Shown here in pieces: positions 27,505 to 52,229 of a DNA stretch of 64,000 bases. Source of the DNA: Planctomycetota bacterium (GTDB lineage: Bacteria; Planctomycetota; UBA8108; SXIK01); NCBI GenBank assembly GCA_965223265.1, contig OZ244999.1, forward strand, positions 1,344,001 to 1,408,000, in the 5' to 3' direction. Under the pieces are notes generated by a model. That model ran no database searches. It was given only the letters and a program-made list of their open reading frames with translations, and was not told where the DNA came from. Position numbers and translations under genes: made by a program. Position 1 is the stretch's first letter; every line of letters begins with the position of its first letter.

Positions 27505-27724
27505 CGCAGCAATGCGCCACAGAGGGACTAGAGGCTTCTCGGCCGCTAAGACGGCGGATGACAAGACACGATCCAAAAGCCAACCACTCCCTCAAGCACG
27601 CCTCACAAATCGAGAAACCCGCAATAACCGACGGTTCCTCAACCGAAGATTCCAAGCTCGAGTCTCGACTCCGTTGATTGAACCTCTCCGATCGTTGACA
27701 ATCGAACGGAAAGGAGAGAGCCGC

Positions 27725-30208: not shown

Positions 30209-30225
30209 CTGTAGTGTAGGATTGA

Positions 30226-30403
30226 CAGCCTGTTGAAAAAGTGCTTCGAGCCGAAAACTGGTCTCTTCGCGTCCAGATCGGCCGCGGCAAACGCAGGTAA
30301 TCTCCGAGCCCTCTTCTATATAAGGTATACGGCGAGTATTGACGCGGTCGAGCTGGGCGTGAAGAGGCCGGTTTCTCGGCCGAATGACTTTTTCAACGGG
30401 CTG
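30226..30403. mobile_element. MITE-like element A, copy 2 (178 bp)
   Basis: Same arms as 24245-24403; flanked by a TTGA direct repeat (30222-30225 and 30404-30407); central 5 nt replaced by 24 nt. Confidence 0.9.
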
Positions 30404-30443
30404 TTGAGGCAAGTCTTCGACCCTGTCCGTCAGGAATCTCGAC

Positions 30444-31802
30444 ATGACGCTTTCGTTTGAATTTCCGATCTCTCGCCGCCAGCTTCTGAGCAGCGCTACG
30501 TGTGGCTTCGGCAGCATCGCGCTGGCTGGCCTGACGGCGGCGGCTTCGGAACGGCCCTCCCATGCTGCAGCGGCCCCGCTACCGCACTTTCGGCCGCGGG
30601 CGCGGCGAGTGATCTTCCTGTTCATGCGCGGCGGGCCGTCGCACGTAGATACCTTCGACTACAAGCCGGAGCTGCAATCGAATCACGACCAAGTGCTCTC
30701 CGACGGCAAGCTCATGGCGTCGCCGTGGAGCTTCCGGCGCTATGGCGACTCGGGACTCACGATCTCAGCGCTCTTCCCTCATTTGGCCAGGCACGCCGAT
30801 GAGCTTTGTGTCATCAACAGCATGCACTGCGACAGCTTCGCCCATCCGGGCGCGACGATCCAGATGCACACTGGCTCGACGACGTTCGTCCGCCCGTCGA
30901 TGGGGGCGTGGGTGCTCTACGGTTTGGGTACAGGTAATGACGACCTGCCTGGATTCGTGACGATCAACCCGACGTCGAACTTCGGCGGCGCGCAGAACTA
31001 CGGTAGCGCCTTTCTGCCGGCGAAACATCAGGGGACGCCTTTGAGCGACAAGGCGCATCCGATGGTGTCCAATTTGACGAACGCCACGGTGACGCGCGCC
31101 GCTCAGCGCCAGCAGCTCGATTTTTTGCGCGACCTGAACGCAGAGCTGCGTAAACGCTGGGAAGAAGACCAGCGTATCGATGCTGTGATCGAGTCGTACG
31201 AGCTTGGATTCCGCATGCAGGGCTCGATGGGCGACGTACTCGATGTTGGACGCGAGAATGCAACGACTCGTGAGCTCTACGGCGTCGACGACAGGGCGAC
31301 TGCCAGATTCGGGACGCAGTGCCTCATGGCTCGGCGGATGATCGAAGCTGGAGTAAGATACGTTGAGATCGACAACGGCGGCTGGGATCAACACACCAAT
31401 CTTCGCGGTCAACACGCAGCCCGCGCACGCGGCGTCGACAAACCGATCGCCGGACTGCTCACTGACTTGAAGCAGCGCGGACTGCTTGACGACACGCTGG
31501 TCGTCTGGGGCGGCGAGTTCGGTCGTCGGCCGTTCGTGCAGTTCGCCACGGGACGAGGCCACAACAACCTCGGCTTCTCAATGTGGATGGCCGGCGGCGG
31601 CAGTCGAGGCGGGCTGCAGTTCGGCGCCACCGATGAGATCGGCCATCGTGCAGTCGAAGACCGCGTGCATGTTCACGACCTCCACGCAACGATCCTCCAT
31701 CTCCTCGGGCTCGATCACACGCGCTTGACGTACCGCTATGGTGGTCGCGACTTCCGCCTGACGGACGTCTACGGCCGAGCCGTCCCTGAGCTGATTGCGT
31801 GA
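30444..31802 (+). CDS. DUF1501 family protein (Tat signal), partner of the upstream cytochrome c/DUF1553 gene
   Basis: SRRQLL leader; RVIFLFMRGGPSHVDTFDYKP; GWDQH; GEFGRRP; GGRDFRLTDVYG. Confidence 0.93.
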   Translation: MTLSFEFPISRRQLLSSATCGFGSIALAGLTAAASERPSHAAAAPLPHFRPRARRVIFLFMRGGPSHVDTFDYKPELQSNHDQVLSDGKLMASPWSFRRYGDSGLTISALFPHLARHADELCVINSMHCDSFAHPGATIQMHTGSTTFVRPSMGAWVLYGLGTGNDDLPGFVTINPTSNFGGAQNYGSAFLPAKHQGTPLSDKAHPMVSNLTNATVTRAAQRQQLDFLRDLNAELRKRWEEDQRIDAVIESYELGFRMQGSMGDVLDVGRENATTRELYGVDDRATARFGTQCLMARRMIEAGVRYVEIDNGGWDQHTNLRGQHAARARGVDKPIAGLLTDLKQRGLLDDTLVVWGGEFGRRPFVQFATGRGHNNLGFSMWMAGGGSRGGLQFGATDEIGHRAVEDRVHVHDLHATILHLLGLDHTRLTYRYGGRDFRLTDVYGRAVPELIA

Positions 31803-37174: not shown

Positions 37175-38605
37175 TCAGGCGAGAATGCTTTTGACGACTT
37201 TGCCGCCGTGGGCGATCGGCACCGGGCGGTCGAGGCGATCGGCGACGGTCAGATCTGGGTCGACGCCGAGAAGATGATAGATCGTGGCGACAAAGTCAGC
37301 GGGTGAGACCTTGTCAGACGTCGGTGACGCGGCATACCTGTCAGTGGTTCCATGCACGTAGCCCTGCTTGACGCCGCCGCCGGCGAGCAGACTGAAGCCG
37401 CACTGCGGCCAGTGGTCGCGCCCGGCGCGTCGGTTGATCCGCGGCGTGCGTCCCATTTCTCCCATCACGATGACGAGTGTCGATTCCAGCAGCCCACGCT
37501 CCTCGAGGTCTTCGATCAAAGTCGGGAACACCGTGTCGAGCAGCGGCAAATTGAAGTCGCGCAGCATGCCGAAGTTGTTCGAGTGCATGTCGTACGCGTG
37601 GCCGTAGTGCGCGTAGATGTCTTGGTGGACGCTGACGAACGGCACTCCAGCTTCCACGAGACGCCTCGCGGCGAGCAAGCTCGAGCCGAAGAGGTTGCGT
37701 CCATAGCGCTCGCGAATAACGTCGGGTTCGCGTGAAATGTCGAACGCTTCTCGAGCACGACTAGAAAGAAGTAGGTCAAACGCTTGCTGTTGAAACCGGT
37801 TCATGCTGCGCAGCGATCCTGACGACTCGAGCGTCCGCAGTTCGTCGTCCAGCTGCCGCAGCAACGAGCGGCGACTTTGCAGCCGGTCCGCAGTGATTCC
37901 TGGTACGTCATCGAGTGACGGCATGCGCGGCTCGCCTTGCGGCATGACAGGATCGTAGTGCTGAAATGATGGCTCACGGTCGAAGGTCGGCGCCGAGCGG
38001 GTGAACAGCGGATCGTACTCCTGGCCAAGGAAGCCCCCGTACGGTCCACGTCGACGCCAGTTCTGCCCTTCGCCCGGAAAGTTTGGCATACAGACAGCAC
38101 CGGGAAGATCCTTGGGCCCCAAACCGAGATATTGGCAGACCGCACCGATGTCCGGTGGGTCTGTTGGCATCGCCTGGGAAAGCGGCTTGTCGTCCGTGAA
38201 GCCGGTCATGATCGGCAAGGGGTCGTGAGAGTTGAAGCCGTGCGAGAAGCTGCGGATGAGGGTCGCCTTGTGCATCAGACGAGCCGTTCGCGGCAGGAGC
38301 TCGCAGATCTGCAGACCAGGTACCGAGGTGGAGATCGGACGGAACTCGCCACGGATTTCACTCGGCGCGTCCGGCTTCATGTCGAACATGTCGATGTGGC
38401 TGGGCCCACCGAGCAGGTTGAACAGGATCACCGACTTCGCTTTGGCGGTGCGGCGGCGTGAGGGATCAACTCGCGCGGCTGCGAGCAACCGCGGAACGGT
38501 CATGCCAGAGAAACCGGCGAAGAGCGACAAACCGCCCACGCGCATCATCTCTCGACGCGGGATCGCATCGCACAACTTCGTGGTACCACCGAGGATCCGA
38601 AGCAT
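37175..38605 (-). CDS. DUF1501 family protein
   Basis: PRREMMR leader; KSVILFNLLGGPSHIDMFDMKP; YDMH; GEMGRTP; GRDHWP. Confidence 0.92.
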   Translation of the reverse strand: MLRILGGTTKLCDAIPRREMMRVGGLSLFAGFSGMTVPRLLAAARVDPSRRRTAKAKSVILFNLLGGPSHIDMFDMKPDAPSEIRGEFRPISTSVPGLQICELLPRTARLMHKATLIRSFSHGFNSHDPLPIMTGFTDDKPLSQAMPTDPPDIGAVCQYLGLGPKDLPGAVCMPNFPGEGQNWRRRGPYGGFLGQEYDPLFTRSAPTFDREPSFQHYDPVMPQGEPRMPSLDDVPGITADRLQSRRSLLRQLDDELRTLESSGSLRSMNRFQQQAFDLLLSSRAREAFDISREPDVIRERYGRNLFGSSLLAARRLVEAGVPFVSVHQDIYAHYGHAYDMHSNNFGMLRDFNLPLLDTVFPTLIEDLEERGLLESTLVIVMGEMGRTPRINRRAGRDHWPQCGFSLLAGGGVKQGYVHGTTDRYAASPTSDKVSPADFVATIYHLLGVDPDLTVADRLDRPVPIAHGGKVVKSILA

Positions 38606-38943
38606 CGCCGCACTCCTTCGTTTGGGGGCGGATGGAATTGAGGACCATATCGTAACATCACGAAGGATCCTTAAACTACGATTCTCAACGCATTTTCAGA
38701 AGCCTGGAAGGGGACTCACCCGTAGGCGTTACGTATTCACTTCTCAGTGTCGTGCGGGTAGAACATCTTCAACGAAATCGTCGGTTGGGGATTCAGAGGG
38801 ACGTCCGAACGAGACGCCAACTCTCGGTGAGAGCTGAAAAGGTGGCGCATCAAGCGTCTTCTTCTTGAGGTGGCCCCACCGCAGTGACGCGTGGCGTTCA
38901 CCGGCCGGCCGGGTCTCGATGCACAAGCTGGAAGCGATTGGGT

Positions 38944-40212
38944 ATGGCTGACTTTCCGAAGGTCTTGCGGTTGACCCCGCACTTCTACCGCAGCGGGATC
39001 TGGCCGATTGCGTTTGACCCCGTGGGCGGGCTTCAGACCCAGACGTGGAGACTCACAGAAGAGTTAGCGAAGTCCGGGATTTCGCAGACGGTCTTGACGA
39101 GCCACATCCCTGGTCACCCTCGCCGCACACGATCGACCCCTTTTGTGCAAGTTGACAGTGTTGGCGTGCCGCTTCCACAGGTTGCCGCATTTCGACTTTC
39201 AAATCTGGCTTGGTTTCTTGGCGTTGCATGGCGCTTGATTGCGAGTCGGTTCGAGCACGACCTGATCCATATTCACTACAATCATTCGGTTTGGTGCCGC
39301 GCGCTGACGATGGTTGCGCAGCGACTCGACGTGCCGGTCGTAGTGACGCTCAGCACTGAGCTCTGGGTGAACAAGGAGCGTCGCGTCCGTCCGTCGAAGC
39401 GAGGTCTTGACGTCGGGCGTTGGATCGAGCGCAAGGCGATCGGATCGTGCGATCGTGTGGTCACACTGACGCATCGAGATGCTGATCGCTGGTTGGGTGA
39501 GCTTGACTTAGAGCCTGAGCGGGTCATCGTGATTCCCGATGCAATCGACGTCGAGGAGTTCTCCGTGCCGATCAGCGGCGACGTTACGCAAGCATTTCGC
39601 AGACGCTTTGCAATCCCTGAGGATCGGCCAGTCGTCGCCTTCATCGGCAGAATCCGAAGCGAGAAGGGGTGGCAGGACTTGCCGTTCCTCCTGCGAGAGC
39701 TTTCCAGTACCGGAGCTCATCTATTGGTCTGTGGCGATGGCCCGGATCGATGGAAGCTCGAACAGGTGCTCCGCGATTGCGGAGGTGGAACATCCTGGAG
39801 CGTTACCGGGTTTCTGAATCCGACGGACGTCAAGGTGGCGCTCCAAATTGCCAGCGTTCTGATCTTGCCGTCGCGGCGCGAAGCGTTTGGTGGTGTGTTG
39901 CTGGAAGCCATGGCGTCCGGGGTCCCGGCCGTTGCGTACGCGGTCGGCGGTGTCGTGGAGGTCGCGGGGACGCCAAATGCGATTGTTCTCGCTCCGCCCG
40001 GTGATCGGTCTCTCTTCGCCACCGCGGTTGTCGAGATCCTTCAGTGTGGTCGGAGGCGGAACCTCATGATCGAGCGCGGGCGCCGTCGGGTGACGGAGTA
40101 CCGTTTGCGCAGCGCGGGTCGGAGGACGGAGCACCTCTACCGAGAGCTGTGCCGTGGCGGCGCTACAATACCAGGTCAGGACTCGCTGGCTTCTCAGATA
40201 GGGGCTTCATGA
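38944..40212 (+). CDS. GT4 glycosyltransferase resembling aminoglycoside 2-deoxystreptamine glycosyltransferases (NeoD/BtrM/KanF type)
   Basis: GT4 motif PSRREAFGGVLLEAMASG (E-x7-E). N-terminus KVLRLTPHFY...WPIAFDPVGGLQTQ...PGHPR and GRIRSEKGWQD resemble the NeoD-type VLRLTPFF...WPAEFDAVGGMQ signature as I recall it. Confidence 0.85.
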   Translation: MADFPKVLRLTPHFYRSGIWPIAFDPVGGLQTQTWRLTEELAKSGISQTVLTSHIPGHPRRTRSTPFVQVDSVGVPLPQVAAFRLSNLAWFLGVAWRLIASRFEHDLIHIHYNHSVWCRALTMVAQRLDVPVVVTLSTELWVNKERRVRPSKRGLDVGRWIERKAIGSCDRVVTLTHRDADRWLGELDLEPERVIVIPDAIDVEEFSVPISGDVTQAFRRRFAIPEDRPVVAFIGRIRSEKGWQDLPFLLRELSSTGAHLLVCGDGPDRWKLEQVLRDCGGGTSWSVTGFLNPTDVKVALQIASVLILPSRREAFGGVLLEAMASGVPAVAYAVGGVVEVAGTPNAIVLAPPGDRSLFATAVVEILQCGRRRNLMIERGRRRVTEYRLRSAGRRTEHLYRELCRGGATIPGQDSLASQIGAS

Positions 40213-40304
40213 TCACTTTCGTTACGACTCACTCGCGGCGCGGTTTTTCGTCCTGGAAGCGCGCGCCGGATTCTGGGTTGATCCGTGTCTCGGTTCGTCC
40301 GTGA
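40209..40304 (+). CDS. Putative 31-aa small ORF, translationally coupled at both ends
   Basis: ATGA overlap with the GT stop and GTGA overlap with the GNAT start; MITFVTTHSRRGFSSWKRAPDSGLIRVSVRP. Confidence 0.35.
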   Translation: MITFVTTHSRRGFSSWKRAPDSGLIRVSVRP

Positions 40305-41320
40305 TCACGCTGACGTGCGAGGTGAGTTTCGATTTCGACTCACTGGAGTATCGACATCTTCTTCGCCGCGCACAGACGACGGCGTTTCAACAGCCTGACT
40401 GGTTGACCGCGTTCTATCGACACCTTGTCGAGTCGCCAGATGTGGAGCCCGCCATCGTTGTTGCACGGACAAGTGAGTCCAGGGAGCTTGTCGCGCTGCT
40501 TCCAATGTTGAAGCGGAGGGTGGGCGAGGCCATCCTCGTCGAGTACGCCTTTCAAGGCGTTACGGATTACGCCTGTCCGATCGTCGCGACGGAAGCGATC
40601 TCGGAGTTGAAACATTCGAACGAGGCGCGGCTTCGATTGCAAAAAATCTTCGGCGATCACGACGTGCTTCGCATCGAGCCGGTGAGACAAGAAGACGTAA
40701 GCATGTGGGGAGGACTTCTCGGCGCAGATCCTGAGTCGCTCGACTTTGGCGCGCATTCAGTTCAGTTCTCAGTACCTTTTCGTCAATGGCGATCTCAGAA
40801 TCTAGGTCCAATCTGGAGAAGTCAATTGGATCGCAAGGGGAGGAGACTGGCTGACAGGGGAGAGGTTAACTTACGGATCGTCTCTGCGGACGAAGCTCGC
40901 GCGGCTCTGAGTCTCGCACGGGAATTCCGTGAAGGTCGTTTCGTGAATGACCCACTGCAGACGGACGAGGGGTTCAGGTTCTACACCCAAGTCGCGGCGC
41001 GTGGCGCGAAATCGGGTTTCGCACGTACCTACCAGATGACATGTGGTGACCGCGTTGTCGCGATCGCTTTTGGGATTGTCGTCGAAAAGCAGTTTTGCTA
41101 TCTGATTCTTGGGTGTGACTATGAAACCTACGCTCGGCACTCGCCCGGACTACTCATGCTCGACCGGATGATGGAGGAGTGGGCGTCCGTCGGGGGGCGA
41201 CTGTTCGATTTCACAATCGGGGATGAGCCGTTCAAGAGTGTCTTTCGCTGTCAACGCAGGAAAATGTATCGACTGGTTCGGGCCAACACGCGGCGCGGTG
41301 TCGAGTTGATTCGAGGGTAA
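40301..41320 (+). CDS. GNAT-fold acyltransferase, CelD/BcsL (Acetyltransf_6) type
   Basis: TAFQQPDWL, GVTDYACPI, YARHSPGLLML, FDFTIGDEPFK. Confidence 0.85.
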   Translation: MITLTCEVSFDFDSLEYRHLLRRAQTTAFQQPDWLTAFYRHLVESPDVEPAIVVARTSESRELVALLPMLKRRVGEAILVEYAFQGVTDYACPIVATEAISELKHSNEARLRLQKIFGDHDVLRIEPVRQEDVSMWGGLLGADPESLDFGAHSVQFSVPFRQWRSQNLGPIWRSQLDRKGRRLADRGEVNLRIVSADEARAALSLAREFREGRFVNDPLQTDEGFRFYTQVAARGAKSGFARTYQMTCGDRVVAIAFGIVVEKQFCYLILGCDYETYARHSPGLLMLDRMMEEWASVGGRLFDFTIGDEPFKSVFRCQRRKMYRLVRANTRRGVELIRG

Positions 41321-41367
41321 GCGACGACGTCGACTGAACGAGGATAGTTGATCGAGAGCGACGAAGA

Positions 41368-42180
41368 ATGGACGAACGTGCGGAGACAAACGAGGGTGCG
41401 CTGCGGAACTCACTCTTGGTTGTTGCGCACCCTGACGACGAAGTCCTTTGGTTCGGTTCGCTGCTTGACGAGATCGATCAAGTCGTCATCGTCTTCTGCG
41501 ATGACGACGCGGTGCCGGGCCTCGGTGCGCGACGTCAGCGGGCGATTGGCGAACTCCCGTTCTCTGTCACCTGCTTAGGAATCCCCGAAGCTGGGTCGTA
41601 CCAGCTTGCGAACTGGGGGCAACCCATCGTGTCGCCGGCTGGGCTCGCGTTGGAGCCAACCCCAGCTGTCGACGTCAATCGCGTATATGAACAGAACTTC
41701 GTTTTCATTCGAGCCGCTCTCGCGAAGAGATGTTCCCCAGACATGAACGTGTTCACACACAATCCTTGGGGGGAGTACGGTCACGAGGATCACGTCCAGG
41801 TGTTTCGAGCGCTTGAGAGCCTCGGAGCGGAGGTCGGGTTCAACCTGTGCGTGTCCACCTACATTTCGAGCCGTGCAGCGCCTCTGGCGGAACTCTACGC
41901 GTCGGACGAAACGACCGAGACGATCCATCGCGTCGTTGACCCCTGGAGGGTGAACCAGATCGCTGACATCTACAAGCGGCACGATTGCTGGACGTGGGCC
42001 GACGATTGGGTCTGGAACGAATCAGAACACTTTGTCGGCTGCCCGACTTTGCGCGCCGCCGGCGTCCCAAAAACGGGGCCCCCGAACATGCGATGGTTGC
42101 AGCAGATCCCCTCGTGCGTCGAGGCTCGGTTGCCGGCGCCGAAGGGCAATCCCCCTGGTCCGCCATCGCTGCCGTTCTGA
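41368..42180 (+). CDS. PIG-L/LmbE family N-acetylglucosaminyl deacetylase-like protein
   Basis: LVVAHPDDEVLWFG and THNPWGEYGHEDH zinc/catalytic motifs. Confidence 0.82.
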   Translation: MDERAETNEGALRNSLLVVAHPDDEVLWFGSLLDEIDQVVIVFCDDDAVPGLGARRQRAIGELPFSVTCLGIPEAGSYQLANWGQPIVSPAGLALEPTPAVDVNRVYEQNFVFIRAALAKRCSPDMNVFTHNPWGEYGHEDHVQVFRALESLGAEVGFNLCVSTYISSRAAPLAELYASDETTETIHRVVDPWRVNQIADIYKRHDCWTWADDWVWNESEHFVGCPTLRAAGVPKTGPPNMRWLQQIPSCVEARLPAPKGNPPGPPSLPF

Positions 42181-42232
42181 TGTCGCGTTCGTCGAGAACA
42201 CTCTTTTCGATCATTTTGCAAGCGGAGGTTCG

Positions 42233-43621
42233 ATGAAACTTGAGTATGCCAAAGCCTCGACCATCGATCCGAAATCGACTTTCACGTTCTCTCAAAAGCG
42301 AATGATTCTCACGTTCAGCGCGGTACAAGGAGCGAGGTTTCTTACCTTGCGGGCGACTGATGCATGGTTACGACAGAGCTTTGGCGCGGCAAATTCTTCC
42401 CGACGTCGCTTCTGCCAGCTTGCTATGCTGTGTTTTCTGTTTGCAGCATGCGAGACGCCAACGACACCAGATCCCACTCTCAGCCCCACGACGCATCGAT
42501 TCGAGAACCGTGACGCGTGGAAACTCGAGAACGACCGCTTGCGGATTTCGATTCTGCATGGAGGTGGGCACATCGCGGAGGTCGTGCTCAAGGGCGATGT
42601 GGCAGATTCCGTCAATCCTTTGTGGGTGCCCCCGTGGCCATCGATCGAACCGTGGACCTTCGACGTCGAGAGACACGGGCGGGTCTATGGCACCAACGCT
42701 GAAGCCTCACTTCTCTCTGGGATCATGGGGCACAACCTATGTTTTGATTTCTGGGGCACTCCGTCTGCAGCCGAGTCTCGAGCCGGAATCGCCTATCACG
42801 GCGAAGCCTCGATCCTGAGAGCCGAGATGTTGACGAGGGAAGAGAACTCGTTGACGCATCGGCTGAGTCTTAAAGAGTCCGGCACTTCCATCACGAGGAC
42901 GATGACGCTGGTCCCTGGCCAGTCTGTACTCTACGTCGAAGAGACGGCCGAGAATCACACCAGCCTCGACAGGCCGTTTGGTTGGGTCCAGCACGCGACG
43001 TTCGGGCCTCCTTTCGTGCATCCCGAGACGGTGTACTTCGACGCGTCCGCGACGCACGGCGACCTTGGAGGAGACACATTTGAACCTTTAGGCACGTGGC
43101 CCGTAGGTTCACCGTCGGACGGCCAGGAGGATTACCGCCGTTTTTCCCCGGAATCTCCGAGTTCGAAGATGGCCTACTTCTTGATGGATCCGGGACGAGA
43201 ACTTCAGTTCGTCACGGCGCTCAGCACCGAGTTCAATTTGCTCATTGGCTATCTCTTTTGGCGCAGTGAGTACCCATGGATGATGGTTTGGGAGGAGAAT
43301 CGCCAGCTCCAAGCGCCACCGTGGAACGGCGAGACGATCACCCGGGGGATGGAGTTCGGCAACACTCGCATCCCGGGCAGTGCTCGACAGTATTTCAAGA
43401 GACCGGAGCTCTATGCTACACCAACTTTCGGGTGGCTGGATGCGAGGGCGCAAGTGACGAAGCGCTATGCACTGTTTCTTGTTGAGATCCCGGCAGGGAT
43501 GACGGGAGTGCGCGACGTGCAGTTGGAGGGAGCGGTCATCGTCGTCGACGCTCAAGGTGTTTCCGAACGGCTGCGGATTCCTTTCGATCCACATCGCTTT
43601 CCTCGTCCTTCGTCAGACTGA
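42233..43621 (+). CDS. Galactose-mutarotase-fold (aldose 1-epimerase/DUF4432-like) putative lipoprotein
   Basis: LENDRLRISILHGGGHIA, GHNLC, YHGEAS, WVQHATFGPPF, RGMEFG; lipobox-like LFAAC; true start uncertain. Confidence 0.7.
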   Translation: MKLEYAKASTIDPKSTFTFSQKRMILTFSAVQGARFLTLRATDAWLRQSFGAANSSRRRFCQLAMLCFLFAACETPTTPDPTLSPTTHRFENRDAWKLENDRLRISILHGGGHIAEVVLKGDVADSVNPLWVPPWPSIEPWTFDVERHGRVYGTNAEASLLSGIMGHNLCFDFWGTPSAAESRAGIAYHGEASILRAEMLTREENSLTHRLSLKESGTSITRTMTLVPGQSVLYVEETAENHTSLDRPFGWVQHATFGPPFVHPETVYFDASATHGDLGGDTFEPLGTWPVGSPSDGQEDYRRFSPESPSSKMAYFLMDPGRELQFVTALSTEFNLLIGYLFWRSEYPWMMVWEENRQLQAPPWNGETITRGMEFGNTRIPGSARQYFKRPELYATPTFGWLDARAQVTKRYALFLVEIPAGMTGVRDVQLEGAVIVVDAQGVSERLRIPFDPHRFPRPSSD

Positions 43622-43698
43622 CTTGGCAGCAGTCCCCGTGACGGTCATGTTCGGAGCGATCTGGCGCTCGGCCGTTCATACCGAACGTGTGGAGGAGG

Positions 43699-46218
43699 TT
43701 ACTGCGTCAACTTCAGCGGCACGCGCGCCAAGTAGATGTCCGCTGCGTCTTTGGATCGAAACTCGCCCTCGTACTCATGCGCGGCTCGGTGGTAGACGAT
43801 CAGCAGGTCGTCACCGTCGCGAACGGCGGCAGCATAGGAGCTGTCATGGTTACCGTCGAGTGCTCCGAGTTGGCAGTAGGGGTGCAGCCGTCCGTTCTCG
43901 TACGTGTAGACCATCGTCGCTTGCTTGACGTTGACTGTGCCAGTCGAGGACGGTGGGCGCGCTGCCGCTGGATCGAGCGGCGGGTCATAGGCGAGCAGTC
44001 GTGAGATGACGTATATGACGCCGTCGAACGTGTAGGCTGCGTGTCCGGAAAGATGGACCTCCGCCGGACGTTCTTGCCATTTGGCATAGGGTGGTTCCGA
44101 CACCAGGATTGCTCCGCCCACCGTCGCTTGGCACCGCAAGAACGCGGTCAGCTGACCACTCGGTTCGAAGAGCAGTGTCGTTTCGCTTTCCCCCTGACCG
44201 GATCTGATGGTGGAGATCCTGTGCCAATCGATACCGTCCGACGAGGTCACGAGGTGCGAGGAACGCGCAGTGTTAGGGCCCGGCCGGTGTGCCCCGGCCC
44301 AATACCTTCCAGCATGTTGGATCGGCTTCCACAAAATGAATCCTGGCTCGAGGATCGTCTGCGGAGTGCTCCAGGCCTGGCCGTCGCCGGTGTGAGTGAC
44401 GGACACATCAAATCGTCGCTCTTCGAACAAGCTATTGGTGTAGAGAAACAGCTTGTCCGCAGTGACGAGAAACTGCGCATCTCGGTCGTCGCCGGAGATG
44501 TCCATTCGCAGAATCTCCGTCCATTTGTGTGTGTCGGCCGATCGCAGCACGATCATGTCACCGTCACGCGCGACGTGCCCTGTCGCTTTGCGAAACGCGA
44601 GCCAGTAGTGACCTTTCCATTTCACAAAAGCTGCGAACGCATTGTGCCGCCCGTCTGAGACAACCTTGCGAACATTCGAAGGTTCTATCAGACCGTTTTG
44701 CTTCGCGCTCTGCTTCAAGGCGCGTTGAAGGAGATTTTGCGTGATCTGCTGGACGCGTGCGTCAGGCCCATGTGGGCGACTCCAATGGGACCAGGGGAGC
44801 GTGTGACCCGGCGGCGAGCTGAGCCCTTGAGCCCAGAAGATGGTCGCGGCGTTGAAAACGAAATTGTCCTTGGGGCCAGGATAGACCGTCGCGGTCCAGC
44901 GCTGGGGACGCTCGCCGCCGACAAACGCGGTGCCAGCCGCCACCACTTCCAATCCGGCGATGTCGGCGGGTGCGCCGTGGTACTCCCAGCCAACAAGCCC
45001 CGGAATCCGGTCGCCGCGTTTGACGTCCGCGCCGGCGAAGATCCAGTGGTCGGGTCGCTCGATGATCCAGTCCCCACCGCCGTTGACCGGTTCGACATTG
45101 CGAGCGCCCATCAGCAGGCCTTCGTCCGGTCCGCGTTCTGAGAACGGACCGAAGTTGCGCTCGCGCTCGAGGGCGTAGTCGTTGTTCGCACCGTACGGCC
45201 CAGCTCGAGAGAAGATGCGATGCGGGCGGCCGTTGCCGCTGGGGCGGAGCGGCGCAACCCAGCAAACGGAGTTTCCCGACAAGAAGAGCAAGCTGACGCC
45301 AGCGTCGCGCATCTGCTCGACTGAGCGAAACTGGCGGATGTCCCAGTACTCGTCGTGTCCGACACTGATGAATGCCTTACACTTCAAACCTCGTTCCGGC
45401 GTGAGTAGGTCGCTGTTGGAGCAGTAGGTTACGTCGTAGCCGTGTTGTTCGAGCCAGAAAGCGAGCGGGAACTCGAACGGCAAAAACTCTCCCGAGCCGA
45501 ACGTTAGCGGGTCGTTGACGACGCCGATGTGTTGGGCTTCGCGTCCGTACGGCCGTTCGAAGCTCACATCTGCCCATGGTCCTTGTGTTCCGTTCGGATG
45601 GGTGTAGAGGGAGTAGTGATTCGGCCAGCGGTTGTAGGCCTGCCAAGTGTTGTCGGAACACTGGAATAAGATGTCAGCGGGGCGGTCGTCGCGCACGATG
45701 AAGACCACGTAACTCTGCCAGTACGGGGTGTCTTCGCTGACGGGCAGCGTTGTGAGTCGACCCAGATAGACGCCACTCAGCCAGTCGGATGGGATCGTCA
45801 GACTTGTCGTTGGCTGCCATTGGCACTCATGAACGTTCTTCGCCCCGATTTCTGGATCAGGTTGTGGAGCGCCGTCGAACGGCCCCAATTTCGTCATCAG
45901 CCGTGCACCGCGGCCGCCGTAGAATCCCATGCGGAAGATTTCGATGTGAAAGCGCTGCGGCGGATTCGCGGAGACCATGATGTCGATCGACTCTCCGGAT
46001 CGAACGCTTTGTTTGGAGCAGTAGCCTTCGATCCACGGCGTGCGAAATCCATTCCGGTCCGGTCGAACTCGCGTCAGCTGCCAGTCGGTCGTGCCTTGTT
46101 TGCGGTTCTCCGCTGCAACGAGAGTTTCCGCTCTCTGGTCCGCTGCCGCGAGTGTTGGTGACAAAGCGAAGGCCAAAAGCCACCCGCCCAGACGGATCTT
46201 CCACGAAAGGCCAGACAT
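43699..46218 (-). CDS. Secreted fusion: N,N-dimethylformamidase large-subunit-like (DUF6605) domain + sialidase/BNR-like propeller
   Basis: IEGYCSKQSV, IFRMGFYGG, NTWQAYNRW, SVGHDEYW, GLVGWEY, VFNAATIFW; then HNAFAAF, SADTHKW and SSDGIDW Asp-box-like repeats. Confidence 0.78.
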   Translation of the reverse strand: MSGLSWKIRLGGWLLAFALSPTLAAADQRAETLVAAENRKQGTTDWQLTRVRPDRNGFRTPWIEGYCSKQSVRSGESIDIMVSANPPQRFHIEIFRMGFYGGRGARLMTKLGPFDGAPQPDPEIGAKNVHECQWQPTTSLTIPSDWLSGVYLGRLTTLPVSEDTPYWQSYVVFIVRDDRPADILFQCSDNTWQAYNRWPNHYSLYTHPNGTQGPWADVSFERPYGREAQHIGVVNDPLTFGSGEFLPFEFPLAFWLEQHGYDVTYCSNSDLLTPERGLKCKAFISVGHDEYWDIRQFRSVEQMRDAGVSLLFLSGNSVCWVAPLRPSGNGRPHRIFSRAGPYGANNDYALERERNFGPFSERGPDEGLLMGARNVEPVNGGGDWIIERPDHWIFAGADVKRGDRIPGLVGWEYHGAPADIAGLEVVAAGTAFVGGERPQRWTATVYPGPKDNFVFNAATIFWAQGLSSPPGHTLPWSHWSRPHGPDARVQQITQNLLQRALKQSAKQNGLIEPSNVRKVVSDGRHNAFAAFVKWKGHYWLAFRKATGHVARDGDMIVLRSADTHKWTEILRMDISGDDRDAQFLVTADKLFLYTNSLFEERRFDVSVTHTGDGQAWSTPQTILEPGFILWKPIQHAGRYWAGAHRPGPNTARSSHLVTSSDGIDWHRISTIRSGQGESETTLLFEPSGQLTAFLRCQATVGGAILVSEPPYAKWQERPAEVHLSGHAAYTFDGVIYVISRLLAYDPPLDPAAARPPSSTGTVNVKQATMVYTYENGRLHPYCQLGALDGNHDSSYAAAVRDGDDLLIVYHRAAHEYEGEFRSKDAADIYLARVPLKLTQ

Positions 46219-48164: not shown

Positions 48165-50804
48165 ATGAGGATGCATCACCCGTCCATTTCGCTGCTGGTG
48201 GCGATCGCGTCGATTGTCCTCTGTAGGGGCCTCGGCCGTAGCGAACTTGCCGCGGAGGAGACTCCAGCCGTCGGGGAAGAAGGCCGGGGAGTGGAGCTGT
48301 TTGAGAAGCGCATCCAGCCTCTGCTGGTGAAGGAGTGTTATGAGTGTCATTCCAAGGCTGCGAGGAATATCGAGGGAGGGCTCGAGCTCGACGTCCCGAA
48401 CGGACTGCGCCGAGGCGGCGACTCGGGTCCGACTTTGATTCCTCACCAAGTCGATGAGAGTCCACTCCTGAGGATGCTACGTCACGTAGATGGCGTCTCG
48501 GCGATGCCACCGGAGCGCAAGCTGGCGGAGGACTCGATTGCTGCGTTTAGCGAATGGATTCGACTTGGCGCCCCTGACCCGCGCCGGGACTCCGGACCGA
48601 CAGCGAAAGAACAACGCCTGGCGGCGGGTTTGGCCCATTGGGCGTTTCAACCGCCGCGACCGGTCGAGCTACCGCCAGTCCGGCGGGTCGACTGGCCACG
48701 CGACGATCTTGACCGTTTCCTACTGGCCCGCATGGAAGAACGTGGCGTGCAGCCGGTGGACGACGCGAGCCGCCGCAGTCTGGTGCGTCGTGTCTTCTTT
48801 GATCTGATCGGTCTGCCGCCATCGCCGCGCGATGTTGAGGCTTTCGTGGCGAGCGACGCGCCGGATGCGTTGGCCAAGCTGGTGGACCGGTTGTTGGATT
48901 CGCCTCGATTCGGTGAACGCTGGGGGCGTCATTGGTTGGACGTCGTGCGCTACGCGGAGTCGAGTGGCATGGAGTTCAATTTCACATATCCGCACGCATG
49001 GCCCTATCGAAATTATGTGATCGATGCTCTGAACGACGACAAACCATTCGACTTGTTCCTGCGTGAACAGATCGCGGGCGACCTCATGGCAGCGCGAGAA
49101 AACGATACGCCAGAGGCGATCGAAGCACGCCACATCGCCGTGAGCGTCTTGGCTTTTGGTCCCAAAAGACACAACTCTGGTGGGGTGCAGTTTCAGATGG
49201 ACGTCGTGGACGACCAGATCAACACGGTCACTCGTGCGACGTTGGCTCTCACGGTCGCTTGCGCCCGTTGTCACGACCACAAGTTTGATCCGATCCCGAC
49301 GCGCGACTACTACGCCCTGGCGGGAATCTTTCTGAGCACGGAGCCGCTCTATGGGACCATCCAGCAGAAATACAGCAATAACCCGACCGACCTACTTCCG
49401 ATTGGCCTGAACGCGGCTGCGCGGCATGCCATTGCCGAGGATTACGAAGAGGTAACGAAGCAGATTCAAGAAACCTTGGCCGCTCAGCGCGAAGAGTTGA
49501 AAAAAGCGGCGGCGGCTGAGCACGCAGCGGCAGCGAAGAAGGAAGAGATCGAGGCTCAGCTACTAGCGGTCGCCGCGCGTTCGGTTGATGGAGAGTCGAT
49601 CCGAGAATTTGAGGTCGCCGAAGAGGAGTTGGAAGAGGTTGCCGCGGCGCTGGAGAAGGCGTCAGCGCGGGTCGGCGAGCGCCGGGCGGCAGTCGCGAAG
49701 CTCGAAACCGAGGCGGCCGAGCGCCAGAAGCACCAGCCGTCGCGGCCGGCATATGCGATGACCGCTCGCGACCGTGCTGAGCCGGCCGATACTAAGATTG
49801 CTATTCGTGGCGATCCTGGCACCAGGGGCGATCTTGTGCGGCGAGGATTCCTCAGCGCTGTGCGAGTGCCAGATGCACCCAAGATCAATCCCCAGCAGAG
49901 CGGCCGCTTGGAGCTGGCTCTCTGGATCACAAGTCCTGAGAACCCACTCACAGCACGCGTCATGGTCAATCGCATTTGGCATCACCTCTTCGGACGAGGA
50001 TTGGTCTCGACGGTCGATAACTTCGGTGTCATCGGGAAGACGCCGAGCCATCCCGAGCTCCTCGACATGCTCGCCCGACGCTTCGTCCGTGAGGGTTGGT
50101 CGATCAAGCGCCTGATTCGCTCGATCATGCTCAGCCGAACCTATCAACTCGGCACTGCGCCAAGCACGTCAAACATGGCGATCGACCCGGACAACCGGTT
50201 GTTCTGGCGAGCGACGCCGAGGCGCCTTCAGGCCGAAGCGATTCGCGACACGATTCTCGCGGTCAGCGGCCAACTCGACCTCAGACGTCCTGATGGTTCG
50301 AGCGTCACCATGCTGGGAGATCAACTCGTGCGCGGCATCGCGACTGAGAAGATTCAGCCACCGAGCAACCACCGAAGTGTCTACTTGCCTGTCGTGCGGG
50401 ACTATGTCCCGGAACTCTTCGACCTGTTCGATTTTCCGTCTCCCAGCCTTGTCAGTGGACGTCGCTCGGTGACTAATGTCCCCTCGCAAGCGCTCTATTT
50501 GTGTAATTCACCATTCGTCGCCGAGCACGCGCGACACGCCGCGCGCCGCTTGCTGGCGTTGACTGCCGCGACCGACGACGCGGCACGCGTCGATCTGGCG
50601 ATGCGTTGGGCCTTGGCGCGTCGCCCTTCCGACAGCGAGCGAGCCGACGCTCTGCGCTTGGTCGATGAGGTCCGGAACACTGAATCACGGAGCGATGCAT
50701 CCGAAGAGAGAGCTTGGGCGGCTTGGTTCCATGCACTCTTTTCTGGGGCGGAGTTTCGCTACCTCGTTGATGTTGATGCGGTTGGAGACGCACGAAATGA
50801 GTAA
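48165..50804 (+). CDS. Planctomycete cytochrome c (PSCyt1) + DUF1549 + DUF1553 protein with long central coiled coil
   Basis: CYECH, CARCHDHKFDP, GERWGRHWLD, Ala/Glu/Lys-rich middle, NPLTARVMVNRIW. Confidence 0.93.
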   Translation: MRMHHPSISLLVAIASIVLCRGLGRSELAAEETPAVGEEGRGVELFEKRIQPLLVKECYECHSKAARNIEGGLELDVPNGLRRGGDSGPTLIPHQVDESPLLRMLRHVDGVSAMPPERKLAEDSIAAFSEWIRLGAPDPRRDSGPTAKEQRLAAGLAHWAFQPPRPVELPPVRRVDWPRDDLDRFLLARMEERGVQPVDDASRRSLVRRVFFDLIGLPPSPRDVEAFVASDAPDALAKLVDRLLDSPRFGERWGRHWLDVVRYAESSGMEFNFTYPHAWPYRNYVIDALNDDKPFDLFLREQIAGDLMAARENDTPEAIEARHIAVSVLAFGPKRHNSGGVQFQMDVVDDQINTVTRATLALTVACARCHDHKFDPIPTRDYYALAGIFLSTEPLYGTIQQKYSNNPTDLLPIGLNAAARHAIAEDYEEVTKQIQETLAAQREELKKAAAAEHAAAAKKEEIEAQLLAVAARSVDGESIREFEVAEEELEEVAAALEKASARVGERRAAVAKLETEAAERQKHQPSRPAYAMTARDRAEPADTKIAIRGDPGTRGDLVRRGFLSAVRVPDAPKINPQQSGRLELALWITSPENPLTARVMVNRIWHHLFGRGLVSTVDNFGVIGKTPSHPELLDMLARRFVREGWSIKRLIRSIMLSRTYQLGTAPSTSNMAIDPDNRLFWRATPRRLQAEAIRDTILAVSGQLDLRRPDGSSVTMLGDQLVRGIATEKIQPPSNHRSVYLPVVRDYVPELFDLFDFPSPSLVSGRRSVTNVPSQALYLCNSPFVAEHARHAARRLLALTAATDDAARVDLAMRWALARRPSDSERADALRLVDEVRNTESRSDASEERAWAAWFHALFSGAEFRYLVDVDAVGDARNE

Positions 50805-50855
50805 ACGATCTCGAACCTCAGTTCGTCCAGGAATGTTGACCGGAGCACCGTCGAT

Positions 50856-52229
50856 ATGACTGCTGCATCAGAACCGACTCTTTCACGCCGAGAGTGGCTC
50901 AAGGTGGGCGCGTGTGGGCTGGGAGGCCTGACGTTGAGCGGTTTCACGCCGGCCCGGTCTGAGGCGGGCTTGTTGTCACCGAAGTCGCCTCATTTTCGCG
51001 CCAAAGCGAAGCGTGTTATCTTTCTGTTCATTAACGGCGGACCGTCGCAGTTCGAGTCGTTTGACTACAAACCGCAGTTGCGGGCCAACGGCGGCAAAAA
51101 GGGTGCGAAGAAGGGAACGCTGCTGGCACCGCTCTACGACTTCGCGCAGTATGGCGAAAGCGGGATGTGGATCTCCGACGCCTTCCCACACTTGGCGCAG
51201 CACGCCGACAGCCTTTGCATGCTCAATGGCATGCGCGGACCCAGCCGTGCTCACCCAATCGCGATTCCGATGTTGCACACGGGGGAGTTTCAGTTCGTAC
51301 GTCCTTCGCTGGGATCGTGGATTCTCTACGGCCTGGGAACGGAGAACCAGAATTTGCCGGGCTTCTTCACGATCAAGCCCACGCGCACGTTCGGCGGGCC
51401 CGCGAATTATGGCAGTGCGTTTCTGCCCAGCACTCTTCAAGCTACGCGGCTTGGATGGAGTGGACAGCCTGTCAAGGACGCCGGGATCCGCAACCTCACT
51501 CCTGGCCATGGCCTGCAGCCCGTTTCAGCGCGCGGCGCTTTCGCTCTGGCACAGAAGATGAATGAGCGGCTGCTCACACAGAGCCAAGACGTCGCTGGGG
51601 TGATGGATTCGCTCACGCTGAGTGAGCGCATGCAGCGTGCGGTGCCTGAGGTGCTCGACCTAGGTCGCGAGTCGAAATCGACGCTCGCGATGTACGGCGT
51701 CGGATCGGGAACGACCGACGACTTCGGGCGCCAATGTCTGTTGGCGCGGCGATTGGTGGAATCGGGTGTACGTTTCGTCGAAGTGAGCTCCGGTGGTTGG
51801 GATCACCACTCTAAGCTAGACAACTTCAGAAAGAAGGCCGCGCAGATTGACCAACCGATCGCTGCTTTACTCGCCGATCTGAAGCAACGCGGTCTGTTGG
51901 ATGAAACGCTTGTTCTGTGGACCGGCGAGTTCGGGCGTGAGCCGGAGACGCAGATCCTAGAAGGCAAGGAGACGCTCGGGCGTGACCACAACGCGTCAGG
52001 CTATACTGCCTGGCTAGCTGGCGGCGGCGTGCGCGCCGGCTTGACGCACGGGGCGACCGACGACCTGGGCTATAAGGCCGTGAGCGGTGAGGTGCACCTG
52101 CACGATCTACACGCCACGATGCTTCATCTTCTCGGCCTCGATCACACGCGTCTCGTTTTTCGCTACGGTGGCCGTGACTTCAGGCTGACGAACATCCACG
52201 GCAAGGTGGCGCACGACATCATTGCCTGA
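50856..52229 (+). CDS. DUF1501 family protein (Tat signal)
   Basis: SRREWLK; RVIFLFINGGPSQFESFDYKP; GWDHH; GEFGREP; GRDHN. Confidence 0.93.
   Translation: MTAASEPTLSRREWLKVGACGLGGLTLSGFTPARSEAGLLSPKSPHFRAKAKRVIFLFINGGPSQFESFDYKPQLRANGGKKGAKKGTLLAPLYDFAQYGESGMWISDAFPHLAQHADSLCMLNGMRGPSRAHPIAIPMLHTGEFQFVRPSLGSWILYGLGTENQNLPGFFTIKPTRTFGGPANYGSAFLPSTLQATRLGWSGQPVKDAGIRNLTPGHGLQPVSARGAFALAQKMNERLLTQSQDVAGVMDSLTLSERMQRAVPEVLDLGRESKSTLAMYGVGSGTTDDFGRQCLLARRLVESGVRFVEVSSGGWDHHSKLDNFRKKAAQIDQPIAALLADLKQRGLLDETLVLWTGEFGREPETQILEGKETLGRDHNASGYTAWLAGGGVRAGLTHGATDDLGYKAVSGEVHLHDLHATMLHLLGLDHTRLVFRYGGRDFRLTNIHGKVAHDIIA

Follow-up and report, generated by a model that had tools for sequence, protein, structure and literature searches.

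Outside translation, only a few classes of substrate are known to undergo tRNA-dependent aminoacylation, namely the precursors of peptidoglycan, membrane lipids and some antibiotics. MprF reportedly acts on a glycolipid, and a glycosyltransferase and an N-acetyl-gulosamine deacetylase are reported for the aminosugar of BD-12. In BD-12 biosynthesis, streptothrisamine receives a glycine at its C2 amine from a Fem-like enzyme that depends on Gly-tRNA (PMC10156733). Here we analyze a locus whose predicted enzymes may follow a similar logic and which lies at positions 38944-42180 of a 64,000-nucleotide window of Planctomycetota DNA (positions 1,344,001 to 1,408,000 of contig OZ244999.1; the genome, 91.65% complete, consists of one contig of 9.18 Mb). 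It encodes a glycosyltransferase of family GT4, a tandem GNAT protein and a hydrolase of the PIG-L/LmbE family. Our leading, though still tentative, reading of the sequences, of structure models and of analogies with described systems is that this self-contained, horizontally acquired trio would make an N-aminoacyl-hexosaminide in the cytoplasm.

Several described systems share part of this logic. In the biosynthesis of BD-12 and streptothricin, where the Fem-like enzyme is Orf11 (Sbb17/Sba18), transfer of an N-acetylhexosamine (HexNAc) and de-N-acetylation reportedly precede the tRNA-dependent aminoacylation of the C2 amine (PMC10156733, PMC12945691). The window GNAT model aligns well to Sbb17/Sba18 (see below), but streptolidine and other antibiotic genes are absent, and the carriers of the cassette described here are planctomycete, proteobacterial, acidobacterial and verrucomicrobial. 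In the bacillithiol (BshA/BshB/BshC) and mycothiol (MshA/MshB/MshC/MshD) pathways, a GT4 transferase of N-acetylglucosamine (GlcNAc) and a PIG-L/LmbE deacetylase are likewise followed by attachment of an amino acid to the amine of glucosamine (GlcN). However, the window proteins fail all equivalog cut-offs of these pathways, and their amide-forming enzyme is a FemX-fold GNAT rather than BshC or a paralogue of CysRS.

GpgSDF of P. aeruginosa and HexSDF of C. difficile combine a cytoplasmic GT4 with a deacetylase in a small operon that yields a cationic GlcN lipid; unlike the window protein, GpgD belongs to COG3233 and not to PIG-L, and a flippase gene accompanies it, while the trio has none (PMC12713373). 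The system also has no acylating third enzyme. For teicoplanin and A40926 (Orf2*/Dbv21) and for butirosin (BtrM/BtrD), GlcNAc is added, an LmbE enzyme deacetylates it and the amine is then modified (PMC4101496); these are large actinomycete antibiotic clusters, whereas no such context surrounds the trio or the related cassettes. Finally, the exopolysaccharide (EPS) loci with TIGR03019 proteins and the type B flagellin locus of C. difficile hold a FemX-like enzyme beside glycosyltransferases, as our locus does (with an ATP-grasp enzyme in its relatives), and presumably make peptidyl-amido sugars (PMC5207246). In contrast, the window GNAT has no TIGR03019 match and no EPS or flagellin context. 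We found no published description of the cassette among the papers retrieved on PF13480, Acetyltransf_6 or COG5653 and on FemAB, LmbE or ATP-grasp. The cassette is probably an uncharacterized variant of a known biosynthetic logic and not an aminoglycoside pathway.

The tandem GNAT protein and its partner enzymes

Open reading frames (ORFs) were called with a GC3-aware caller. The trio comprises the GT4 gene (38884/38944-40212; 422 amino acids (aa) from the ATG at 38944), the GNAT gene (40301-41320; 339 aa) and the PIG-L/LmbE gene (41368-42180; 270 aa), all on the plus strand and separated by only 88 and 47 nt, respectively. An earlier note on this DNA, made from the sequence alone, had described three co-oriented genes running divergently from a DUF1501 gene, and both the ORF calls and Pfam confirm this arrangement; the DUF1501 gene (37175-38605, minus strand) reaches 304 bits in Pfam. 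The 338 nt between the DUF1501 and GT4 genes (38606..38943, no strand) are presumed, from their position only, to carry the promoter of the trio.

The GNAT protein matches the Pfam family PF13480 (Acetyltransf_6) with 99.4 bits at a cut-off of 22, with no match to the Pfam families FemAB or DUF2156. No match was obtained in NCBIfam at E<=0.01, TIGR03019 (cut-off 260.35 bits) included, nor among the sequences of the PDB at E<=1. Its AlphaFold2 (AF2) model, built on an alignment of 24 rows, has a mean predicted local distance difference test score (pLDDT) of 95.2. In Foldseek comparisons with this model, the template modeling (TM) score was 0.61-0.64 for FemX, 0.53-0.59 for MprF/aaPGS and 0.55-0.57 for Sbb17/Sba18, versus 0.38-0.52 for tandem GNATs that use acyl-CoA. 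With VIA-align, Z reached 20.0 for FemX(Sa), 19.8 for FemA and 18.4-18.9 for FemX(Wv), the alignments to FemX and FemA covering 292-302 residues. Sba18 and Sbb17 with streptothrisamine aligned at Z 19.2-19.4 with a root-mean-square deviation (rmsd) of 3.1-3.3 over 270-272 residues, at a sequence identity of only 10-11%, followed by aaPGS/MprF at Z 15.8-18.1. The acyl-CoA tandem GNATs gave Z 13.6-15.4 with an rmsd above 5, the first of them appearing at Z 15.4 and rmsd 5.5. The top 23 entries are all aminoacyl-tRNA-dependent transferases except 2hqy, a protein of unknown function. By these models, the protein has the double-GNAT fold of the FemABX enzymes, as the earlier note had supposed.

Lysine 312 is invariant in 24/24 aligned GNAT proteins, is preceded by Phe in 21/24 and by Tyr in 3/24, and stands about 27 residues before the C-terminus. 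The key residues of FemX and DhpH-C are Lys305 and Phe328/Lys329, respectively (PMC12945691), and Lys305 is about as far from the C-terminus as Lys312. The Phe/Tyr-Lys312 pair appears to resemble these residues, an equivalence drawn from position and not from superposition. FemABX and MprF/aaPGS (Z 15.8-20.0) have the fold, and may have a C-terminal Phe/Tyr-Lys pair, in common with the window protein, which differs from them in carrying PF13480 alone, in lacking an MprF-type membrane domain and in having a GT4 and a PIG-L protein as partners. On the strength of the model, we predict an N-aminoacyl (or N-acyl) transferase, for which aminoacyl-tRNA is the most likely donor. The predicted complex of the GNAT and PIG-L proteins scored 0.00 (mark 0.32), which speaks neither for nor against a contact. 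Within the GNAT coding sequence, ARAGORN called a 92-nt tRNA-Thr(cgt) at 40907-40998 (plus strand); Rfam gave no tRNA there at E<=1, and the call is probably a false positive.

The third protein of the trio matches PF02585 with 32.4 bits (cut-off 28.2). The deacetylase motifs named in the earlier note are present as H21-P-D23-D24 (HPDD) and H139-E-D-H142 (HEDH), with H21, D23, D24, H139 and H142 invariant in 20/20 aligned homologues. The motif of the LmbE superfamily consists of HXDD and a further His after a spacer of 97-148 residues (PMC4101496), a definition that the spacer of 118 residues found here fits. According to the same review, all characterized LmbE-like enzymes hydrolyze GlcNAc or an N-acyl-GlcN core (PMC4101496). 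The protein fails the MshB model (18.3 bits, cut-off 224.35) and has no BshB match (BshB1 cut-off 182.5). Its sequence predicts a HexNAc de-N-acetylase.

The first protein matches both halves of a GT-B glycosyltransferase, PF00534 with 106.5 bits (cut-off 26.4) and PF13439 with 79.1 bits (cut-off 28.5). The EX7E pair E313/E321 as well as R236/K241 are invariant in 19/19 members of its subfamily, and by sequence it is a GT-B GT4 of the retaining type that belongs to a cassette-specific subfamily. Its top NCBIfam match is BshA (TIGR03999), at 100.7 bits against a cut-off of 273.7, and it also fails the models of MshA (TIGR03449; 88.6 bits, cut-off 462.5) and of the GpgS-type GlcNAc-PG synthase (72.2 bits, cut-off 480). 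Since it ranks only 10th of the 31 GT4 matches of its own genome to the BshA model, this likeness to BshA is generic. The best matches among PDB sequences are MshA, BshA, a sucrose-phosphate-synthase-like protein and GlgM, with 62-69 bits. A search of 5.8 billion proteins returned 104 proteins (P0002 to P0105) at E<=6e-41 and 27-58% identity, beyond which the matches weaken to E ~1e-20 to 1e-16 and most named proteins are labelled BshA.

NeoD, BtrM and KanF belong to GT4 as well, and the earlier note had taken the window enzyme to be of this aminoglycoside type because of its N-terminus. This assignment finds no support. The supposed N-terminal signature is the consensus of the subfamily of the window GT4, and NeoD, BtrM and KanF do not appear in the names of the NCBIfam and PDB matches. 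In a quick IQ-TREE phylogeny of 39 rows, supported by SH-aLRT alone, the protein falls into a 17-row clade of cassette-linked GT4s (support 100) nested in a 23-row clade (99); a separate BshA clade (8 rows, 99) includes the BshA of the same genome, and the deeper branching is unresolved.

Neighborhood, relatives and origin of the cassette

Scanning genome contigs with a profile of the GNAT protein gave at least 518 confirmed relatives among 602 pattern matches, of which the best 80 loci were used. Genes on the same strand and no more than 3.5 kb away were scored as neighbors when tblastn matched them at E<=1e-10. A PIG-L gene stands directly downstream of the GNAT gene and co-oriented with it in 61/80 of these loci. 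Most frequent was the plain GNAT-PIGL pair (47 loci), and Wzy_C accompanied this pair in another 6. The order GT4-ATPgrasp-GNAT was followed by PIGL in 6 loci, by GT2 in 6 loci (Mesorhizobium) and by neither in 3. ATPgrasp-GNAT-PIGL was found twice, ATPgrasp-GNAT-GT2 and ATPgrasp-GNAT once each, and GNAT alone in 8 loci, one of them without room downstream. Thus, GT4 is found in 15/80 loci, and in 15/15 of these a gene of about 325 aa, the ATP-grasp gene, lies between GT4 and GNAT. The order of the window, GT4-GNAT-PIGL without this gene, occurs in 0/80. The coupling of GNAT and PIG-L is seen in a natural fusion as well (P0364, 616 aa); over 253 aa, the PIG-L half of this protein shares 45% identity with the PIG-L protein of the window. 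In another protein (P0489, 769 aa), a non-orthologous GT4 is fused to a GNAT. The earlier note had asked for the conservation of this neighborhood, which these data support for the GNAT and PIG-L genes.

The extra gene has no Pfam match at E<=0.001. However, it falls into ATP-grasp clusters of the ESM Atlas with scores of 0.95-0.98, and a 14-row profile matches the C-terminal region of D-Ala-D-Ala ligase with E 0.026. Its AF2 model (pLDDT 83.4) resembles LysX/ArgX, RimK and Ddl at TM 0.45-0.52, all listed matches being ATP-grasp ligases. By profile and model, it is an ATP-grasp ligase. With the protein of the relatives as query, no such gene was found in the genome of the window.

A scan of JGI metagenomes (80 loci), in which no relative was closer than 49%, showed two close loci with all four genes (L102, L103) and five with ATPgrasp-GNAT, with or without GT2 (L099-L101, L104, L166). 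We built a FastTree phylogeny of 99 GNAT rows (the window, two copies of its own locus, L081 and L092, and 96 other loci), each row a tblastn segment of at least 280 query residues and at least 30% identity. Its deepest division separates two groups, both with support 100. Clade I (29 rows) holds all 25 ATP-grasp loci, the window (3 rows) and the long-branched L112, which lacks neighbors. Clade II (70 rows) is the Rhizobiaceae-type pair, with a PIG-L gene in 59 rows and no PIG-L match in 11. The window GNAT nests (support 90) with a Methylococcales metagenome-assembled genome (MAG), the gill symbiont of Solemya velum and a Planctomycetota MAG. Because its GNAT belongs to the ATP-grasp clade while the window lacks that ligase, the trio looks like a reduced form of a four-gene cassette of GT4, ATP-grasp, GNAT and PIG-L or GT2.

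The PIG-L homologues differ along the same lines. Those of clade I, the fused P0364 included, carry a short C-terminal motif I/V-P-S-x-V past the catalytic domain, and Rhizobiaceae-type homologues have an insert of about 25 aa instead. A hydrophobic C-terminal tail is present in 22/62 pair-type homologues and in 0/10 of clade I, and is absent from the window protein.

Among 1.84 billion representatives of 50%-identity clusters, phmmer found 109 relatives of the GNAT protein at E<=1e-30, a number that grows to 533 with a threshold of E<=1e-10 and to 2225 with E<=1e-3. One further protein (P0450, 883 aa) joins GINT1_N, the N-terminal domain of glucosamine inositolphosphorylceramide transferase 1, to a GNAT of 31% identity, another link to glucosamine conjugates.

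Carriers of the cassette are mostly Rhizobiaceae and other proteobacteria, mainly from soil and the sea. The closest homologues of the trio are 52-62% identical, with Acidobacteria, Verrucomicrobia, Methylococcales and Mesorhizobium as named sources. Equal contig sizes suggest that the closest homologues of all three proteins share contigs (41785, 4810, 52200 and 143722 nt). Within Planctomycetota, an orthologue of the GNAT gene was found in 0/60 relatives (E<=1e-20) and in 1/400 other sampled genomes (E<=1e-30). Because the orthologue is this rare in the relatives and the phylum, the trio was probably acquired horizontally. The acquisition was probably not recent, since the composition of the trio is ordinary for its own genome: among 3.2-kb windows its GC content of 59.3% (genome 60.8%) ranks at the 19th percentile, and among 400 random windows its tetranucleotide distance ranks at the 35th. 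The lower GC content that the earlier note had seen by eye is therefore real as a dip, but the dip is small and not unusual.

The flanks of the four-gene cassette differ completely between its carriers, which suggests an autonomous module. In the other carriers the context is varied and mostly unrelated to polysaccharide assembly, and polysaccharide machinery is absent from most cassette loci inspected. Dongia cassettes are followed by genes for an ABC ATPase and a multi-pass membrane protein; in Mesorhizobium a soluble GT2 replaces PIG-L, flanked by KDO8P-synthase-like and glyoxalase-like genes, and the cassette of the Solemya symbiont has another glycosyltransferase past PIG-L. A small KGG-type ORF beside the Dongiaceae cassettes was considered as a member and rejected as lineage synteny only. 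Rfam on eight relative loci gave as sole matches one tRNA and one cobalamin riboswitch. The riboswitch (L017:4081-4309, 105.9 bits) shares its strand with a Dongiaceae four-gene cassette that starts 3.2 kb downstream of it, and it probably controls the intervening ABC-ATPase and PCuAC genes, not the cassette.

Candidate pathway and competing explanations

In the pathway that we favor, the GT4 would first move an N-acetylhexosamine, most likely GlcNAc from uridine diphosphate (UDP)-GlcNAc, onto an acceptor that we expect to be a small molecule or the head group of a membrane lipid and not a polymer. The PIG-L/LmbE zinc hydrolase, judging from its family and intact catalytic residues, would then strip the N-acetyl group and bare the C2 amine. 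In the third step, the FemX-fold GNAT would acylate this amine, most likely with an amino acid from aminoacyl-tRNA, as its fold suggests. In the four-gene cassette, the ATP-grasp enzyme would presumably append a further amide-linked residue. Both donors in this scheme, the acceptor and the sequence of the three reactions are inferred. That the GNAT would re-acylate the freed amine is the simplest reading of two observations: the characterized LmbE-like enzymes hydrolyze GlcNAc or an N-acyl-GlcN core, and the GNAT is coupled, and in some cases fused, to an enzyme of this kind. The logic of glycosylation, de-N-acetylation and re-acylation or aminoacylation had been put forward in the earlier note and is supported by the domain families, the FemABX fold, the gene order and the fusion.

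Several findings weigh against this pathway. The Z gap between FemX-type enzymes and acyl-CoA tandem GNATs is only about 1-4 units, the fold is no proof of tRNA use, and members of PF13480 generally carry an acetyltransferase annotation. The likeness of the GT4 to the small-molecule enzymes MshA and BshA is weak (~69 bits) and unspecific, with nine other GT4 matches of the genome outscoring it on the BshA model. The GT2 that takes the place of PIG-L in the 6 Mesorhizobium loci indicates that deacetylation is not obligatory in the family. The 47/80 loci with the GNAT and PIG-L pair but no dedicated glycosyltransferase leave room for the GT4 to act last, on a modified nucleotide sugar, and the Wzy_C gene, which is O-antigen-ligase-like, in 6/80 loci would allow a glycan acceptor. 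The genome also encodes a second PF13480 protein, the PEP-CTERM/XrtA-associated FemAB paralogue L082 (TIGR03019 270 bits, cut-off 260.35), which lies beside three GT4 genes (8095363-8102106; L082, L183, L186, L187) and is the version of the GNAT family that belongs to an ordinary EPS locus.

One less likely alternative keeps the same scheme with acetyl- or acyl-CoA as the donor of the GNAT, so that the N-acetyl group would be swapped for another acyl group as in teicoplanin or Nod factors. PF13480 is a family of the GNAT clan whose members are annotated as N-acetyltransferases, and acyl-CoA tandem GNATs still align with the window model at the Z scores given above. The PF13480 domain of Brucella BspF has been discussed as a possible protein acetyltransferase (PMC8488576), and in teicoplanin the deacetylation comes before the attachment of the long acyl chain (PMC4101496). 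Contrary to this, all better structural matches depend on aminoacyl-tRNA, with rmsd 3.1-4.6 versus more than 5, and the invariant Phe/Tyr-Lys near the C-terminus resembles the catalytic pair of FemX and DhpH-C.

We give a similarly low weight to an ordinary decoration of an envelope polysaccharide, a lipopolysaccharide (LPS) or the glycan of a glycoprotein, in which the trio would aminoacylate an amino sugar of a repeat unit whose assembly and export would be encoded elsewhere. The COG name of the GNAT ('CelD/BcsL ... cellulose biosynthesis'), the Wzy_C neighbors and the paralogue L082 all speak for it, and the type B flagellin locus of C. difficile makes a peptidylamido-sugar with a FemAB-like and an ATP-grasp enzyme (PMC5207246). 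However, the window GNAT does not match TIGR03019. In addition, no gene for a polymerase (Wzy), a flippase (Wzx), an export protein or a priming transferase was found in the scanned flanks of the trio, and the wholly different flanks of the four-gene carriers suggest an autonomous module. The earlier note had expected that, were it mistaken, such trios would sit inside ordinary polysaccharide loci; for the most part they do not, their contexts being varied and Wzy_C adjacent in only 6/80.

Somewhat less probable still is a different order of steps, from UDP-GlcNAc to UDP-GlcN by PIG-L and to UDP-(aminoacyl)GlcN by the FemX-like enzyme, with the GT4 acting last. The conserved core is indeed GNAT and PIG-L (61/80), whereas the glycosyltransferase is variable (GT4, GT2 or other) or absent, and FemX itself acts on a UDP-linked precursor (PMC12945691). 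Against this order, the review of the LmbE family consulted here names no member that is active on a plain nucleotide sugar (PMC4101496).

It is improbable that the trio makes a second low-molecular-weight thiol, with the FemX-like enzyme using Cys-tRNA in place of BshC or MshC. The logic of the steps is that of bacillithiol and mycothiol, and BshA is the top NCBIfam match of the GT4, but this match is unspecific (10th of 31) and nothing points to cysteine. Moreover, the genome already has a canonical bshC-bshB1-bshA cluster (6635393-6638956; L093, L088, L180), 5.25 Mb from the trio, with all three genes over their cut-offs: bshC at 279.6 bits (265.8), bshB1 (L088) at 246.3 (182.5) and bshA (6637841-6638956) at 481.6 (273.7).

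The aminosugar-cyclitol pathway of the earlier note, aminoglycoside- or mycothiol-like, or its variant of an aminoglycoside-modifying system, is very improbable: although GT4 and PIG-L form the pairs BtrM/BtrD and MshA/MshB, with BtrD and MshB both in the LmbE review (PMC4101496), and although MshA is among the best PDB matches of the GT4, the MshA and MshB models are failed (88.6 and 18.3 bits, cut-offs 462.5 and 224), the GT4 forms a clade of its own, and the cassette, carried mostly by Rhizobiaceae and other proteobacteria, has no antibiotic-type clusters around it. In the scanned flanks, neither a 2-deoxy-scyllo-inosose synthase nor an aminotransferase for a 2-deoxystreptamine pathway was found. 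The three PF01761 matches of the genome are two AroB-type equivalogs of dehydroquinate synthase (DHQS), aroB (372 bits, cut-off 305) and PRK06203 DHQS (539.6, cut-off 333), and a protein like glycerol-1-phosphate dehydrogenase; all are far from the window, the nearest about 110 kb away. An inositol-1-phosphate synthase (PF01658) gave 0 matches in this 91.65%-complete genome, and two matches to the MshC model (227.7 and 214.8 bits) stay below the cut-off of 485.1. Consistent with the earlier note, no BtrC-, MshC- or BshC-like gene is present in the scanned flanks; genome-wide, no btrC-type gene and no mshC over its cut-off turned up, but a bshC did, in the distant bacillithiol cluster.

Surroundings of the locus and implications

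The genes around the trio encode PSCyt/PSD1 and DUF1501 proteins, sulfatases and an MFS transporter, a set that is typical of planctomycetes and unrelated to glycan synthesis. The trio itself encodes no membrane protein, and the PIG-L protein has no strong hydrophobic segment. No credible small ORF, such as one for a small carrier protein upstream of the GT4, was found in 38606..38943. The promoter scan gave 0 sigma-70-like sites and terminator-like sites not above shuffles, Rfam had no match at E<=1 in 38000-43800, and PADLOC assigned none of the three proteins to a defense system.

About 50 nt past the PIG-L gene, a co-oriented ORF (42233-43621, plus strand) has a lipoprotein-like signal (Arg-rich, a hydrophobic stretch, Cys) and is DUF4432-like, with a Pfam E of 0.0015 that is below the cut-off and an atlas score of 0.94; neither the cassette loci nor 5 relatives yielded a homologue of it. 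Upstream, the DUF1501 gene 37175-38605 has no PSCyt/PSD1 partner, and the gene that follows it encodes a protein of 830 aa with Reg_prop repeats. In relatives this upstream protein is only 55-63% identical, too distant to define an insertion site. Pairs of PSCyt1/PSCyt2/PSD1 and DUF1501 genes occur twice in the window (27512-31802 and 48165-52229).

Should the trio serve only to decorate a glycan, the finding would be ordinary. A broader idea, which we consider possible but doubtful, is that the GNAT and PIG-L core with its GT4 and ATP-grasp additions represents an uncharacterized and widespread family of pathways to N-aminoacyl- or N-peptidyl-glucosaminides by tRNA-dependent chemistry, present in Rhizobiaceae and scattered phyla. 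The product might be a cationic head group of a glycolipid or a soluble cofactor or protectant, in either case a new one, and the trio studied here would represent the minimal set, with three enzymes.

If the pathway that we favor is right, the substrates of tRNA-dependent aminoacylation would come to include an aminosugar conjugate from primary or envelope metabolism, and the conserved module would unite a FemX-fold enzyme and an LmbE deacetylase, joined in relatives by a GT4 and an ATP-grasp ligase. A gene pair found in many Rhizobiaceae would then gain a function, and the planctomycete trio, as the smallest form, would be convenient to express and analyze.

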